A DNA stretch of 64,000 bases, from positions 5,063,879-5,127,878 of the forward strand of contig OZ244053.1 in the NCBI GenBank assembly GCA_965215235.1. The letters run 5' to 3'. Origin of the DNA: Terriglobia bacterium (lineage in GTDB: Bacteria > Acidobacteriota > Terriglobia > Versatilivoradales > Versatilivoraceae). Position numbers and translations under genes: made by a program. This document shows positions 34,070 to 42,116 of this stretch, in pieces (within the stretch, counting starts at the first letter, position 1; each line of letters starts with the position of its first letter). The notes under the pieces were generated by a model. It did not search any database. It saw nothing but the letters and a program-made list of their open reading frames with translations, and was not told the DNA's origin.

Positions 34070-34608
34070 TCAGGCTCCGTTCTCCTTATACAGGAAACGG
34101 AATCTCCAGGCCAAAAGAATGCAGCCAATGGGAAGGGCAATGAGAGCCCCGTAACCCAGCACTCCCTGGTAGTTTCCGATGGCTTTGATCGCGGTGAACA
34201 CGAAGGCGCTGCCTGCCACGAGGTTGACAACTTGGAGGACAGCGGGAGCATGGAGTGGACGGGGAAGAAACCTTCGGTCGGCCCAGAGGTTGGCAGAACA
34301 GTAGAAACTGGCCACGAAACAGGTGAAAATCCCTGCCGGAGTGACGAGGTCCAAAAGGTCGAAACCCGGCTCGACCACGCCGGCTTGCTGCAGCCAGCGA
34401 ACGCTGATTGGTGGCCGAAGATCGCGCCCCCCGGGGAGGGGAAAATCATTTCCCCGCTGTCCACCGCCACCGAGGCCACAATGGCGCCGGGACCGAAGAA
34501 ACGAAACCATGCCGCTAGGTTGCGAGACAACAGAGCCGCTGGAGGATCTGCTACACCTGCGCCGACAGCGGTTGAATCTCCGGTTTCTTGAGGCGACATG
34601 CTCGACAT
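34070..34608 (-). pseudogene. Nramp-like transporter with a large internal deletion
   Basis: N-terminal FFGPGAIVASVAVDSGEMIF joined out of frame near 34400 to C-terminal DRRFLPRPL...; most TM helices missing. Confidence 0.65.
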
Positions 34609-34693
34609 GCTTTTGAGGAAGCCCCCCGGCTGGTCGAGGGTGGATATATCGAACCGGAGTTCGCTGCTCGCTTGCTCCGCCGCCGGCCATCCG

Positions 34694-37600
34694 TCACCCA
34701 TTGATGGACGAAGCTGTGTGTGGCGCCACCACGTCGACAAACTCCGCAATCACCCGTACCCGTTCTTCTTCCGCGCCAGTGAGGATGATGGGTTTGAAGT
34801 CGGGATTGAGGGGCTTCAGGATGATAGTCGTGTGTCGCCAGGAGTCGCCGTCCGTTGTTTTCTTGCTCTCGTAACGCTTGATGGTGTAGCGCTCCCCGGT
34901 CTCGGGATCGAGCGCGTCGCGGAGTTGAACGAGCACGCTCTTGCCCTGCCGGGCGCCGGTGACGGGCGCCGCGAACAAACAGTAGGCGCCGTCCGGGATC
35001 GCGGGTTCCATCGAGCGGCCCACGACCTGGGCGACGAACATGCCCGGGCGCAGGCGATGCTTTGTTTCCACTTCTATCCATTCCCACTCGTTATCCTCGA
35101 CGTGTTGCGCTTCGCTGAAGGCGCCGGCGGCTGCTGTGAGGGGGACGAGCGGCACGCAGGTAACGTATTTCTCCTCAAGGTTCGGCTGAACCACCCTGAA
35201 CGGCGCGCCCCCGGAGTGCTCGCCTTCCGGTTCGACTCGCATTTCCGGCGCACGGCGGATTTTCTGGTAGGGCCCTGCCCTGCCATCCACTCCGTGACGA
35301 CGTTCTGAAATGGCGCGTCGTTCATGAAGCGGACGAAGATCTCTTCGTTCTGATCCATGCGCTCGACGAAGAGGTTTTCGAGCAGGTTCTTGAATATCAG
35401 CTCGAACTTGCCCCCCGGATTCACCGCCGCCGCCTGCCGCAGGTCGTCATCGGCAACTGCTGCTTCGACGATCTGGTCGAAGAAAAGCTGATCGGCCTGA
35501 TTGAAGTCGGCGCCGAAGCGTTCGTTCACGATGTCGATGAGCTGGGAGAGCGGCATGGATTCCGACCGCACCAGGCCGCTCCCGACCTCGGTAGGGCCGT
35601 CGAGCGGGCGCGGCTCGCCGTATTGCAGCGGGATCGATCCCTCACTGATCTTCTGCAACCGGTAATACTCGAGACGTACGTCGTCGTCGAAATCGTAGGC
35701 GGGACCGCGACGGCGCCTGGGCAGCTTGGCGGCGAGATGCCGGAGGAACACGTACAGTTTCTCCAGATCTGAGTCCTGGTAGGGGATCACCTGGCTCAGG
35801 AATCCATAGAGATTCCGAAACGCCTGCGTCTTGCCCCGCCAGAGCTCGGCCTCTTCTTCGTCCTCGTCGAGCCATGCCCCGAAACGAGAAACCGCCGGGT
35901 CCAGAGCCACGTTCATCGCTTGGTGGTCCGCGGCGCTCTGACGCTGCTTGGGCTTGAAGTACACCTTGCAAAATCGCTTGACCTCTTCGTCCAGGTAGAT
36001 TCCGGCGGCATTGAGCTCGCTCTGGACCTGGTACATGCGCGCCGGGTCGACCTCCTCGCCCATTTCAGCGCCCTCGTAGTAGACCTTGAAAGCCTCATGG
36101 ATCTCGTCACGATCGTTCACGAAGTCGAGGACGAAGGTGTCCTCCTTGAGAGGATGGATGCGGTTCAGTCTCGACAGCGTCTGCACTGCCTGGATTCCGG
36201 CGAGCCGCTTGTTCACGTACAGCGTATGCAGCAAGGGCTGATCGAATCCCGTCTGGTACTTCTCCGCCACGAGCAGCACCTGGTATTCCTGTGTCGCGAA
36301 CTTCTCGGGCAACTCCTTCTCCCGAATCCCGTCGTTCATATCTTCCTCGGTATAGGAAACGTCGGGCAGTTTGTCGTCCTGCACAGTGCCCGAGAAGGCC
36401 ACCAGCGACTTGATCGGATAGCCCTTCTCGCGGATGTACTTGTCGAAGCTTTGCTTGTAGCGGACCGCCTCCAGGCGTGAACCGGTCACCACCATCGCCT
36501 TGGCGCGTCCGCCGATCCTGTGCCGGGTGAAGGCATTGAAGTGCTCCACCATCACCTCGGTCTTCTGCGTGATGTTGTGTGGATGAAACTTGAGGAAGCG
36601 GGCGAGCGCTTGGGCGGCTTTCTTGCGTTCGACGTTGGGATCGTCGCGGGATGCTTTCAGGAGCTTGAAGTAGGCGGCGTAGGTGGTGTAGTGCTTGAGC
36701 ACGTCGAGGATGAACCGCTCCTCAATGGCTTGGCGCATGGTGTAGCGATGCGCGGGTTGTCCGTTGCGTCCAAATACGGCGAACGTCTTGTGTTTGGGCG
36801 TCGCTGTGAAGGCGAAGAAGCTCAGGTTCGCCTGACGCCCCCGCTTGGCCATGCTGCGAAAGAGCGCTTCCATATCCTCATGGCCTTCCTCCTTCGCCTG
36901 CTTCCTGGCCCTCTCCCACAATGCCTCGCCGCCGAGCACCCCCTTCAACTCGGTGGCCGTCTCGCCGCCCTGAGAACTGTGCGCCTCGTCGATGATGACG
37001 GCGCAACGGCGGGTAGGAAGGATGCCGGTTTCATCCGTCCCGCGCTCTTCGGCCATCTTGAGCAGGTGGCGGGAGACGAAGGGGAACTTCTGCAAGGTGG
37101 TGGTGATGATCGGGACCGCGTTTTCCAGCGCCTGGGCCAGTTGCCTCGAACTTGCGTCGATCTTTTGCACCACGCCGCGTTTGTGCTCGAACTGGTAGAT
37201 GGTGTCCTGAAGCTGCTGGTCCAGCACGATCCGGTCGGTCACCACGATCACGCTGTCGAAGACGCGCTCATTCGAGGCGTCGTGCAATGACGCCAGTCGG
37301 TGGGCGAGCCAGCCGATGGTGTTGCTCTTGCCGCTGCCGGCCGAGTGCTCGATCAGATGGTTGTGTCCCACGCCGTTGCTCCGGGCGGCATCGACCAACA
37401 GGCGCACCGCCTGGAGTTGGTGATAACGGGGGAAGATCATCGTCTCGACCTTCACTTTACGCCTCCGGTCGTCGTGCTTCTCCTCGCTCTGCAAGTGGAC
37501 GAAGCGGGCCAGCAGGTCGAGCAGGCTGTCGCGTTGCAGGACCTCCTCCCACAGGTAGGAAGTACGGTAGCTGCGCCCTTTGGGATCGGGCGGGTTGCCA

Positions 37601-38259
37601 GAGCCGCCGTCGCAGCCCTTGTCGAAGGGAAGAAAATGCGTCGCAGCGCCGGCGAGCCGGGTGGTCATGAGCACGGACTCGGTATCCACCGCAAAGTGGA
37701 CGAGCGCGCGCCGCTTGAACTCGAAGATCGGCTCGCGCGGGTCGCGGTCCTGCCGGTACTGCCTGCGTGCATCCTCGAGGGTCTGGCCGGTGAGCGGATT
37801 CTTCAACTCCAGGGTTGAGACGGGTATCCCGTTCAGACTCAGCGCGACGTCGACGGAGTGCTCCGAGCGCGGCGAAAAGCGGAGTTGGCGGGTGAGGCCG
37901 ACGCGGTTGGCGGCGTAGCATGCCTCAAGATCGGGGTTCAACTCGTGGGCCGCCTTGAAAAAGGCAATGCGCAGCGTGCGGCCATAGCACTTGAAGCCGT
38001 GGCGCAGCGTCGCCAGAGCGCCGTGCGTGTCCATCCACTTGCAGAGGTCGGCGAGCACCTGCCCGCCGATCCGCTCGCCGAGAAGCGCCTCCAGCTTGCT
38101 CCACTCGTTCGGCTGGGTCTCGCGGATGAACTCAAGCGCGGTCTCGGGAAAGAGGGCGCGTTCGCGGTCGAAGGCGTCTCTCGGGATGGAGATGTAGCCG
38201 TTCCGTAGAAGGTGCGTTTCGATGACGGTCTCGAAGGCCGCTTCGCCGGTGGGTTTCAT
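34694..38259 (-). CDS. hsdR: Type I restriction subunit R with C-terminal S24 (LexA-like) peptidase domain; apparent frameshift at 35270-35275
   Basis: VD...NGIP...LELK nuclease, [34 protein letters not shown]. After EWMAGQ the other frame reads YQKIRR...AAAGAF...VVGRSMEP...YTIKRY. Confidence 0.9.
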
Positions 38260-38750
38260 GGCTCTATCTCCAAGACAAACCTAGCCCGCTCACGGCGCAG
38301 CATCTCGAAAGGCGTCATGCAGGTAATCTCCAAGGCGATGCAAGCATTGGGGATTTTGATCTTCCTGGGTGAATTCGAAGGCTTCTCGTGCGTCACCACC
38401 GTGTGGGCATGGGCCAGCGCGTGGGCGACCAAATAGTAATCCGCCACCGATAGGAACGTGTTGATGGCAGCGGGGTCGTACTGCTGCCTGGTGGACCAAG
38501 CGCTCACTGCGGCGAGCGCGTTCAACACTTCCTCATCGGGCCTTAAAAAGAATCCGGGGCCACGGTCCGCTGCCCAATTTGCAAGCTGGTCTCCTCCGCC
38601 TTGGATCTCGCCTTCCACTTTCTCGATGCTGTAAACGTTTCCCGCGTCATTGGACTCGATTAACCACTCCCAGAACGCAGGGCAAAAGTCGAACCCGTAG
38701 TGCAGATTGCTGGCGCTCATGAACACGTTGGCGTCGAGGAGGTAGGCCAT
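38256..38750 (-). CDS. DUF4411 PIN-like protein
   Basis: YLLDANVF...YGFDFCPAFWEWL...ADYYLVAHA...VVTHE...KIPNAC. Confidence 0.88.
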   Translation of the reverse strand: MAYLLDANVFMSASNLHYGFDFCPAFWEWLIESNDAGNVYSIEKVEGEIQGGGDQLANWAADRGPGFFLRPDEEVLNALAAVSAWSTRQQYDPAAINTFLSVADYYLVAHALAHAHTVVTHEKPSNSPRKIKIPNACIALEITCMTPFEMLRRERARFVLEIEP

Positions 38751-39895
38751 CACACGTCGAGTCCCAGGCTATCCCCGAGCTTGCGGAAGGTCGCCATCTT
38801 CTTGAAGCCGAGCAACCGGAACGCCTCCGTGAAGGACGACCGTCCCTCCAGCGTGCTCACCACCATGGCGCGGGCGAAGCGCTTGCTGACCCGGGCGCCG
38901 AGAGTGAGGTAGAAGTCGCCGCCGCTCCCGGCGGACAGTGCTCTCAAACGAGCAACTTCCTCATCGTAGTCGGCCCGGTACTCATCGGCGGTGAGCGTGC
39001 CGACGTCGCGAAGCCGGCGCAGCACGACCAGTGTGCTCACCTTGAAGCGTCGCGCCAAGCGGTCCAACTCGGCGCGGAGCTCGGCTTGAGGCTCATGTAC
39101 GGCGCGCAGCGTCGCCATCGGCACCAGAAACTCCGCCGCCACTTGGTTGCACCAGCGCTCGACATCATGGTCGGGAAGCGTTCGCACCTGGCTGTCGGAA
39201 AGCGCCGATTGGCCCAGCCAGATATGAACTAACTCGTGCGCCAGCGTGAACATCTGCGCCGCCTTGGTGTCTGCGCCATTGACGAACACCAGCGGCGCCA
39301 AATCGTCAACCAACGCGAAGCCGCGGAATTCCTCGGGGTTCAGCTTGCGCCGGTTGTTGCTCCCTGCGATGCTGCTCACCATCACGAGTACCCCAGCGGC
39401 ATTCGCTTGCGAGATGAAACGGCGTAGCGCATCGGTCCAGGTGGGCATTTGCCGGCGTTCTTCCAGGTCGAAGCCAAGTGCCCCGCGGATTCCCGCAGCC
39501 ACCGCTTCGACGTCGTTGTTCTGCTGCACCGAACCCACGAACTCAAGCCGTCGCTCCCCCTCCATCAGGGCGAAGTCGCGGTACCACGCTTGCCGTTGCT
39601 GACACAGGTAAAGCGTGTCGAGCAGATCAGGGCTCGGGCGCTCGACAGTCTGACCGGCGATGGTTCGGAAATCCGGAATGGGCACCTGCTCTTCCGGCGG
39701 CTCGGGCAAAAACAGGTAGCCGACGGGCGTATGCGTGGCCTTGGCGAAGGCTTCAAGCTGCTTGAGGGTCGGCTGCTTCTCCCCCCGCTCCCAGGCGGGA
39801 AGCTGGCGGATACGCTTCGCAAGGGCAGCGGGCTCGATTCGTGCACGCTCGCATGCCCAGCGCAGCATTCTGGGTTCGATCTCAACGCGATTCAT
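38750..39895 (-). CDS. XRE-HTH + ImmA/IrrE (M78) metallopeptidase
   Basis: LRWACER...WERGEKQPTLKQL HTH; FTLAHELVH (HExxH); E..CN..AAEFL. Confidence 0.92.
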   Translation of the reverse strand: MNRVEIEPRMLRWACERARIEPAALAKRIRQLPAWERGEKQPTLKQLEAFAKATHTPVGYLFLPEPPEEQVPIPDFRTIAGQTVERPSPDLLDTLYLCQQRQAWYRDFALMEGERRLEFVGSVQQNNDVEAVAAGIRGALGFDLEERRQMPTWTDALRRFISQANAAGVLVMVSSIAGSNNRRKLNPEEFRGFALVDDLAPLVFVNGADTKAAQMFTLAHELVHIWLGQSALSDSQVRTLPDHDVERWCNQVAAEFLVPMATLRAVHEPQAELRAELDRLARRFKVSTLVVLRRLRDVGTLTADEYRADYDEEVARLRALSAGSGGDFYLTLGARVSKRFARAMVVSTLEGRSSFTEAFRLLGFKKMATFRKLGDSLGLDV

Positions 39896-41528: not shown

Positions 41529-41882
41529 TCACTCTCGCACCCGGATTTGCGATTCTTCCACGATCCAAAGCCACCTGTCGAGCGGCGCGCCGGACAGCGA
41601 CCGGAGAAACCGTGCCCCGATGTTCAGAACATGGTCCCGCGCCTGGCTTCCAAGTCGAAACACGACAATCCCCGAATAAACGCCGGGGGGATAGGTTCGG
41701 ATATCCGAGAAGTCCGTATCTAACGTGACCATCGCACGGCCTTCGCGAACGCACGCCAACGCGAGAGCGGAATCCGTCGCTCCGCCGAGATCCTGGTCGA
41801 GAACCGTCACAGCGTCATGTCCGGCCTGATGGAACAGATTCGCCAGTTCAGACGGAAGATTCTCGTCCAGCTTGAATCGCAT
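41529..41882 (-). CDS. DUF5615 PIN-like toxin
   Basis: MRFKLDENLP, GHDAVTV, GATD, VTLDTDF. Confidence 0.88.
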   Translation of the reverse strand: MRFKLDENLPSELANLFHQAGHDAVTVLDQDLGGATDSALALACVREGRAMVTLDTDFSDIRTYPPGVYSGIVVFRLGSQARDHVLNIGARFLRSLSGAPLDRWLWIVEESQIRVRE

Positions 41883-41887
41883 GCCCA

Positions 41888-42116
41888 CTACTCCGACAAC
41901 GGCGCCACCCGTTCTTTCGCCAGTTCCGCGGCGTAGCACACGGCGGCCCTGGATGGCTTCACGGGTGATCGACGGGTAGCTTCTCAGGATTTCCTCTGAA
42001 TCCAGACCGGTCGCCAGGTTGTCGAGGACCGTGGTCACCAGCACTCGGGTACCTGTGATGCAGGCTTTTCCGTGGCAGATTTCGGGATCGACCGTAATAT
42101 GCTCTTGCCAATTCAT
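41888..42116 (-). CDS. DUF433 antitoxin, apparent +1 frameshift at 41945-41949
   Basis: ITVDPEICHGKACITGTRVLV..VLDNLA.G...EEILRSYP.IT; removing one base gives IQAAVCYAAELAKERVAPLSE-stop. Confidence 0.88.

Follow-up and report, generated by a model that had tools for sequence, protein, structure and literature searches.

A LexA-like S24 module joined to HsdR and to other restriction enzymes: a candidate damage-responsive switch

How do restriction enzymes spare their own host after DNA damage? The mechanism has been detailed for few systems, of which EcoKI with ClpXP is the best studied, and removal of HsdR by ClpXP is an established route of restriction alleviation for this enzyme (PMC4231737, PMC11109961). 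ClpX is also involved in the fate of LexA, whose cleavage reveals latent ClpX signals and leads to fragment degradation, according to PMC10584840, which cites Neher 2003. Here we describe a locus in which a type I HsdR subunit and a LexA-like S24 domain appear to be parts of one protein. It lies in a stretch of 64,000 nucleotides (the window, to which all positions refer unless a genome position is given) of contig OZ244053.1, assembly GCA_965215235.1, from a Terriglobia bacterium, and is a type I restriction-modification operon on the minus strand with hsdM, hsdS, five inserted open reading frames (ORFs) and hsdR. An earlier note, made from the sequence of the window, had read hsdR as fused to such a domain across a break of the frame. 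Taken as one overall statement, that this is a natural HsdR-S24 fusion with a competent S24 module in a regulatory role, the proposal has in our judgment about an even chance of being right.

The S24 module, its fusion to HsdR and its other hosts

Two ORFs overlap on the minus strand in different frames, one at 35074-38259 (1061 amino acids, aa) and the other at 34694-35290 (198 aa). The longer one has Pfam matches to HSDR_N (8.3e-12), SWI2_SNF2 (3.4e-24), T1R_D3-like (1.5e-11) and ResIII (2.6e-10), and these domains make up the N-terminal PD-(D/E)xK nuclease and the superfamily 2 (SF2) motor of an HsdR. The shorter one matches Peptidase_S24 (E 1.3e-9, 38.2 bits against a PF00717 gathering cut-off of 23.3). 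Only two extra bases in a GGGCCC stand between the HsdR body and the 191 residues of linker plus S24 part (35269-34697).

Is this module really a relative of LexA? Since a single-sequence search of PDB gave chance matches only, profile and fold searches were needed. With a profile of 51 relatives, all 21 PDB matches were LexA, lambda cI or UmuD. The AlphaFold2 (AF2) model of the 170-residue module, with a predicted local distance difference test (pLDDT) score of 90.1 and a predicted template-modelling score (pTM) of 0.85, gave 32 Foldseek matches at E<=1e-3, with E from 2e-5; among the matches listed at that level all were LexA, lambda cI or UmuD, at TM-scores by target of 0.36-0.72. No model of NCBIfam covers the S24 part. 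The residues expected of a self-cleaving S24 protein are well kept. No exception to the Ser of G-x-S-M-x-P occurs among 120 close homologues, the 51 rows of alignment A2 or the 86 rows of alignment A1; the Lys is invariant in A2 and conserved to at least 90% in A1, and the Ala-Ala-Gly of AAAG, which occupies module residues 25-28, is conserved to at least 90% in both. The predicted scissile site lies 38 residues before the Ser, and in LexA it lies 35 residues before it. Modelled fold, motifs and Pfam score all place the module in the S24 family, as the earlier note had supposed from an Ala-Gly site, a Ser and a Lys, and self-cleavage is predicted for it.

With the S24 part as query, 1948 of 3784 candidate proteins with lengths of 337-2000 aa matched at E<=1e-3 (best 1.7e-79), far beyond chance, and the best 120 of these matches are 60-77% identical to the window copy. 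When the hosts of these 120 are told from the 140 residues upstream of S24, 79 are linked to HsdR and 38 to methyltransferase-specificity proteins of the type ISP-like kind, the host of the other 3 being unclear. Many relatives are complete, at 1170-1207 aa, and contain HSDR_N, SWI2_SNF2, T1R_D3 and S24. Their junction reads WMASEAYRKLR where the window has WMAGQ-x-YQKIRR, and a single residue separates Q/E from Y. If the break in the window is read through with an X, the resulting protein of 1187 residues, the length which the earlier note had given, can be aligned to each of six natural fusions (1180-1187 aa) at 78-80% identity over 1177-1182 columns, two of the six alignments being free of gaps; over HsdR residues 500-995, its identity to the listed close relatives is 83-86%. 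Among 119 listed HsdR relatives, nine were excluded because they do not match the junction pattern, and S24 is present in 88 of the remaining 110 and absent in 22. All 88 are in-frame fusions and not separate genes, so that the search which the earlier note had recommended, for proteins with both HsdR and Peptidase_S24, has turned up many, and its claim of a fused HsdR holds in relatives as well as in the in-frame allele found in three of the four sequencing runs described below. About 17 of the 22 relatives lacking S24 are full-length alleles of 1010-1037 aa which end 7-35 residues past the junction, and the rest are cut or partial, together with P0334. As far as sequences tell, the HsdR-S24 fusion is a natural and common architecture, with S24 as an optional add-on.

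P0334 itself is a homologue frameshifted within S24, at the Ala-Gly site. Another protein, P0096 (738 aa), joins the N-terminal half of an HsdM to the C-terminal region of an HsdR and S24, so that either genes have recombined here or the assembly is chimeric. The natural fusion P0004, which was scored in place of the window protein, stays below the cut-off of the NCBIfam model for hsdR, TIGR00348 (187.4 against 284.55 bits); judged from its sequence, HsdR of the P0004 type is a divergent clade of HsdR.

The module is not confined to HsdR. Among 1.84 billion cluster representatives, 1905 were matched at E<=1e-3, 200 of them even at E<=1e-30, and in most of 150 listed representatives the module is at the C-terminal end. 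Of these 150, the 86 with at least 240 aa were scanned with Pfam, S24 being counted at E<=1e-4. The scan found S24 in 79, Type_ISP_C in 13, ResIII in 6, Eco57I and HNH_4 in 5 each, a Schlafen-type (SLFN) helicase, the MrfA Zn-binding domain (MZB), N6_Mtase, HTH_31 and HTH_3 in 4 each, T1RH-like_C in 3, PLDc_2 and AlbA_2 in 2 each, and RE_LlaJI, MmeI_Mtase and Methylase_S in one each. The proteins from which the module comes are annotated as 'type I restriction enzyme R subunit', 'DEAD/DEAH box helicase family protein' or 'SOS-response transcriptional repressor LexA'.

On contigs taken from one genome per species, at least 470 of 598 candidate stretches were confirmed. The best 80 loci span Acidobacteriota, Binatia, Chloroflexi, Nitrospirota, Desulfobacterota, Gammaproteobacteria, Myxococcota, Planctomycetota, Spirochaetota, Gemmatimonadota, Actinomycetes and others. 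By their open frame, 42 of the 80 match the HsdR body of P0004, 15 match the ISP-like body of P0016 and 23 match neither; five of six tested frames of this last kind consist of Helicase_C, MZB and S24, with at least 1100 aa in view. In 33 of the 42 HsdR-like loci the body is 72-89% identical to that of P0004, in some across nearly the whole of about 990 residues, although they come from different phyla (as metagenome-assembled genomes), and such identity suggests a recent and wide horizontal spread of the system. A tree of 121 S24 domains has 10-11 changes between HsdR and ISP-like hosts in its best form, and the 9 of its 117 inner branches which are well supported force one such change.

There is also a second family of HsdR, with T1RH-like_C, in which S24 is C-terminal in one locus (L036) and internal in six (L048, L083, L074, L077, L082 and L072), L074, L077 and L082 being near copies of one another. 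The inserted S24 sits between ...MAGYHQFHAVQVAV..., which we take to be the helicase Q-motif region, and ...WHTQGSGKS... (Walker A), and the PLxAAAG loop, the Ser and the Lys are all intact in these inserted forms. Judged by the domains of its hosts, S24 is a portable module, carried by HsdR proteins of two families, by type ISP-like methyltransferases and MZB helicases, and by further nucleases.

The break of the frame at GGGCCC

What, then, is the break which separates HsdR from S24 in the window? On the minus strand, CAGGGCCCTAC is found at 35277-35267, directly after the codons for VTEWMAGQ. Past ...WMAGQ, the HsdR frame becomes an Arg-rich tail of 66 residues, and the second frame reads ...GPYQKIRR..., followed by AAAGAF, GRSMEP and TIKRY. 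The sequence, the positions and the three motifs are as the earlier note had given them. Four public runs with the same organism and study label contain this stretch, and they were compared as assembled contigs over 1201 bases; one of them, X1, is possibly the source of the window assembly. The contigs of X2, X3 and X4 (depths 2.7, 36.1 and 23.7) omit two letters at 35272 and have no other difference over the 1201 bases. The contig of X1 (depth 7.02) retains both bases, again with no other difference. Thus, the in-frame fusion of 1187 aa is encoded in X2, X3 and X4, where dropping the two letters gives CAG GCC TAC (Q-A-Y), the very reading which the earlier note had put forward. At 35270-35275, where it had called for an inspection of reads, the assembled contigs of three runs out of four favour the fusion, and the contig of X1 keeps the frameshift.

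The same genome has another gene which is broken in this manner. recA is split into two overlapping frames (G000:C1:3098056-3098845, outside the window) at ...ATGTCCCAGGGCCCTGCG..., a site sharing the 9-mer CAGGGCCCT with the hsdR break, and removal of one base there restores ...MSQALRKLTG..., the canonical RecA motif. An open-frame-gain test was carried out over the whole genome, in which 1 or 2 nucleotides (nt) were deleted at a motif and the spanning frames that grew by at least 100 codons were counted. Frames were gained at 126 of 1282 GGGCCC sites (9.8%) against 72 of 1500 random positions (4.8%; Fisher p 4e-7), at 51 of 317 sites in the CAGGGCCC/GGGCCCTG subset of GGGCCC (16.1%), and at 4.4-5.5% of sites for six other control motifs, including long runs of G, C, A and T. 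In other words, about 60 excess apparent frameshifts, a twofold excess, are tied to GGGCCC. Within the window, the hsdR site alone among seven GGGCCC sites shows a gain; with 2 nt deleted at 35270..35275, the open frame across it grows from 1064 codons to 1190. A test based on GC phase had given 35 of 129 for GGGCCC and 279 of 1993 for random positions, but only about 10% of sites passed its margin, and it was replaced by the open-frame-gain test for this reason. Since about 60 excess frameshifts at a single hexamer are implausible in a living cell, they are read as a systematic error of base calling or polishing, for which a modified motif would be a speculative cause.

Since recA is broken in the same CAGGGCCCT context and GGGCCC shows this excess of frameshifts, the break between hsdR and S24 is probably an artefact of assembly or base calling, or else a variant of one sample, and for this genome it follows that split hsdR and split recA are probably both sequence errors in GGGCCC contexts. 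Could the insertion nevertheless be genuine, so that the 2 bp uncouple S24, HsdR ends in 66 out-of-frame residues in place of the domain, and the remnant goes untranslated? We consider this unlikely. What weighs against an artefact is that the X1 contig, which is made from its own reads, carries the two bases at depth 7.02 and differs nowhere else, so that there may be a real variant in sample S1; besides, the natural alleles without S24 show that HsdR manages without the domain, and P0334 is a case of a homologue frameshifted inside S24. Against a genuine insertion, X1 is possibly the assembly's own source, the broken recA and the GGGCCC excess would be implausible for a viable organism, and no convincing ribosome-binding site precedes the GTG at 35290 or the ATG near 35243. 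That HsdR and S24 are two separate genes, or are joined by programmed ribosomal frameshifting, as two ORFs overlapping in different frames could suggest, is very improbable: the DNA is in frame in three of four runs, the 88 S24-bearing relatives are without exception in-frame fusions, and past the break the HsdR frame has an Arg-rich tail in place of the conserved AYRKLR junction. Programmed frameshifting was rejected also because there is no slippery heptamer at the break site.

Of the partners which a LexA-like switch would require, this genome has, besides recA, an intact clpX (622 bits) and a separate housekeeping gene of the LexA type with S24 (96.7 bits, Pfam). The clpX model also picks up a Clp-type ATPase gene in fragments (G000:C1:4608425-4609727, outside the window), of which one contains an in-frame TGA, and this may be another broken gene.

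A possible switch and its alternatives

What could a self-cleaving domain do on a restriction enzyme? The earlier note had thought of a switch responsive to RecA or of a dimerisation module. We tentatively propose, at somewhat less than even chances, a damage-triggered OFF switch which acts via self-cleavage, a degron and ClpXP. The S24 module would then be a portable 'fuse' that couples restriction and defence enzymes to the DNA-damage signal. RecA filaments on single-stranded DNA, or some other co-protease cue, would promote self-cleavage between Ala and Gly, by which the enzyme part with the nuclease, always N-terminal to the cut, would be left ending in ...Leu-x-Ala-Ala-Ala. Because this terminus is similar to the ssrA tag and to the C-terminus of LexA's N-terminal fragment, it is proposed that it would be recognised and that ClpXP would remove the fragment. 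Restriction would thus be alleviated during repair, which gives rise to unmodified sites in the host DNA. In the C-terminal fusions the cut would release the S24 core; in the inserted form the core would stay on the motor fragment, and the cut would also break the backbone of the motor. The new Ala-Ala-Ala end on the nuclease-bearing N-terminal fragment is the only trait common to the C-terminal and the inserted forms, and the OFF direction is favoured for this reason. As for the degron, terminal Ala-Ala is critical to ClpXP degrons and an upstream Leu favours recognition (PMC10862746). The wider proposal is that a single, highly conserved self-cleaving module has spread among bacteria and works as a plug-in 'fuse', triggered by RecA and with ClpXP clearing the cut enzyme, in the two HsdR families as well as in type ISP-like methyltransferases, MZB/Schlafen-type helicases and HNH/PLD/LlaJI nucleases; we judge it possible but less likely than not.

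Several points weigh against such a switch. Every functional step in it, namely cleavage, RecA dependence, ClpXP dependence and phenotype, is inferred here, and cleavage of S24 proteins can activate rather than inactivate, as in UmuD. The single-sequence phmmer search of PDB with the S24 part returned no LexA, cI or UmuD and only chance matches to sulfite reductase (E 0.33), and the E-values of the profile matches in PDB are weak (0.012-0.71). AF2 puts the Ala-Gly stretch in a short helix of moderate confidence (pLDDT 79 in its block and 59 in the next), so that a cleavable conformation is not displayed, and two of the 88 fused HsdR relatives (P0342 and P0035) have AAAS, with Ser for Gly at P1'. 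Third from the end of the predicted N-terminal fragment stands Ala instead of Leu, and a terminal Ala-Ala does not by itself suffice for strong recognition by ClpXP (PMC10862746). Finally, at least one LexA-like protein cleaves without RecA (PMC7101444). As an observation apart, P0342 and P0035 may be uncleavable variants.

Cleavage might instead work in the opposite direction, with a tethered S24 keeping the enzyme inactive as a zymogen until it cuts itself, in response to DNA damage or to an active phage or prophage, and restriction is switched on. UmuD is activated by S24 cleavage, the S24 core would leave the enzyme in the C-terminal fusions, and the alleles without S24 would be equal to a constitutively active canonical HsdR. 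The six inserted forms fit poorly with activation, however, since they would keep the core on the motor fragment with the backbone cut between the Q-motif helix and Walker A, and to switch on a translocating nuclease while repair makes unmodified sites would be self-destructive, as restriction alleviation leads one to expect (PMC4231737, PMC11109961). On the whole we find a zymogen improbable. In place of RecA, the trigger may be a phage protein, a translocation complex that has stalled, a different co-protease or some further cue, with the same outcome or the opposite one. Against such a trigger, the cleavage region PLVPLxAAAG resembles that of LexA, and the module stays 60-77% identical to the window copy across hosts and phyla, which would fit a conserved partner such as RecA. 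In favour of a different trigger, the subfamily is distant from the housekeeping LexA (the S24 query gives one match in its own genome, and it takes Pfam to find the separate LexA-type gene), an IrrE/ImmA-like M78 protease with a DUF4411 partner is often encoded immediately upstream, and the RecA-independent autocleavage mentioned above provides a precedent (PMC7101444). We would not count on such a trigger, which seems unlikely to us. It is also conceivable that the S24 fold is never cut and serves for dimerisation or docking, by pairing HsdR subunits or by binding RecA filaments. The C-terminal domains of LexA, cI and UmuD' do dimerise, dimeric entries are among the Foldseek matches, and the Ser for Gly in two of 88 fused relatives would be harmless to such a role; the conservation is, however, centred on the Ser, the Lys and Ala-Ala-Gly, which a pure binding domain would not need, and this makes a role without proteolysis quite improbable.

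If the proposed OFF switch is true, a built-in S24 would be a simple and portable answer to the question of how restriction enzymes spare their host, and a general mechanism of restriction alleviation and control of autoimmunity, including the form inserted in the motor. The question can be tested directly, since the prediction names three residues, a scissile bond and a degron.

The operon and the known systems

The coordinates of the features are collected in Table 1. hsdM and hsdS are on the same strand as hsdR, as in a type I operon, and the five ORFs separate hsdS from hsdR.

Table 1. Features of the restriction-modification operon and of the S24 module, in window coordinates
Feature	Position	Strand	Evidence and remarks
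hsdM, methyltransferase subunit, 662 aa	43683..45671	-	Pfam N6_Mtase 5.3e-52, HsdM_N 3.2e-23
hsdS, specificity subunit, 422 aa	42418..43686	-	Pfam Methylase_S 2e-9
DUF433 + DUF5615/PIN-like protein, inserted between hsdS and hsdR	41529..42116	-	Pfam DUF433 1.2e-19, DUF5615 2.5e-19, PIN_10 4.9e-6
ORF, 324 aa	40496..41470	-	No Pfam family; single weak tblastn relative, in locus L058
PIN-domain protein, 153 aa	40023..40484	-	Pfam PIN 1e-9
IrrE/ImmA-like M78 metallopeptidase, 381 aa	38750..39895	-	Pfam Peptidase_M78 1.9e-18
DUF4411 protein, 165 aa	38256..38753	-	Pfam DUF4411 1.9e-54; overlaps hsdR start
HsdR body, 995 residues ending ...TEWMAGQ	35275..38259	-	Nuclease, SF2 motor, helical C-terminal region
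GGGCCC with two extra bases (35272-35273)	35270..35275		Breaks the frame
Junction helix end (YQKIRR) and variable hydrophilic linker	35207..35269	-	Aligns to AYRKLR and the non-conserved linkers of homologues
S24 (LexA/UmuD-like) module, 170 residues	34697..35206	-	Pfam PF00717; stop codon 34694-34696
Predicted scissile Ala27-Gly28	35123..35128	-	A26, A27 and G28 conserved to at least 90% in A2, matching columns in A1
Predicted nucleophile Ser65 (GRSMEP)	35012..35014	-	
Predicted general base Lys110 (TIKRY)	34877..34879	-	

The M78 peptidase has tblastn relatives in 12 loci, mostly immediately upstream of the hsdR-S24 open frame, and the DUF4411 protein has them in 11. As a pair (38256-39895, minus strand) the two recur directly upstream of hsdR-S24 in at least 10 loci of different phyla (L014, L016, L018, L031, L042, L065, L068, L085 and others). 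Because this pair is conserved in place, it is possible that the same operon has a second damage-responsive protease. On the other side, an ORF of 206 aa at 34070-34690 (minus strand), Arg-rich in its first half, begins four bases past the S24 stop; no Pfam family matches it and no relative of it was found in the 88 other loci, and it is probably not a gene and is not counted in the restriction system.

Has such a module been described on restriction enzymes before? No description of S24 domains on restriction or defence enzymes was found in full-text searches of the literature, a coverage that leaves out subscription journals, supplements and REBASE, and passages of PMC5714182, PMC12839542 and bioRxiv 10.1101/2022.05.11.491447 likewise do not mention S24 fused to restriction enzymes ('S24' in the bioRxiv text is a table number). 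The hsdR frameshift itself is ordinary, being most likely an artefact; new, apparently, is the pairing of S24 with restriction and defence enzymes, a widespread and undescribed add-on.

The module shares with LexA, lambda cI and UmuD (MEROPS S24, PF00717) the fold, the Ser-Lys dyad and an Ala-Gly upstream of the Ser. It differs from them in being joined to the C-terminus of a restriction or defence enzyme, or inserted in a motor, and not to a DNA-binding helix-turn-helix or a polymerase subunit, and from LexA also in its distant sequence, without a single-sequence match to any solved LexA. The predicted ...Ala-Ala C-terminus would be similar to the one left on LexA's N-terminal fragment, which is recognised by ClpXP (PMC10584840). 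HsdR of EcoR124I (PDB 2w00 and related entries) has the same layout of nuclease, motor and helical region, in an operon with hsdM and hsdS, and is the best solved relative of the fusion P0004 (E 1.6e-9 to 8.3e-9), by a very weak match over residues 649-705 only; this HsdR of 1038 aa has no S24 domain. The restriction alleviation of EcoR124I is described as ClpXP-independent. The second largest class of S24 hosts, with its domains Type_ISP_C, N6_Mtase and Eco57I, is like the type ISP enzymes (LlaGI, LlaBIII) and their relatives; the characterised type ISP enzymes are not known to carry S24. The ISP-like S24 proteins match no helicase or nuclease family in Pfam, and they may therefore be the methyltransferase-specificity half of a split system. 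The closest comparison in function is with EcoKI. There, HsdR is removed by proteolysis once unmodified host sites have arisen after damage or recombination (PMC4231737, PMC11109961), and our proposal would end in the same protease, ClpXP. In EcoKI, ClpXP recognises the translocating HsdR itself, whereas in the fusions described here a self-cleaving domain would make the degron, and RecA filaments would be the signal.

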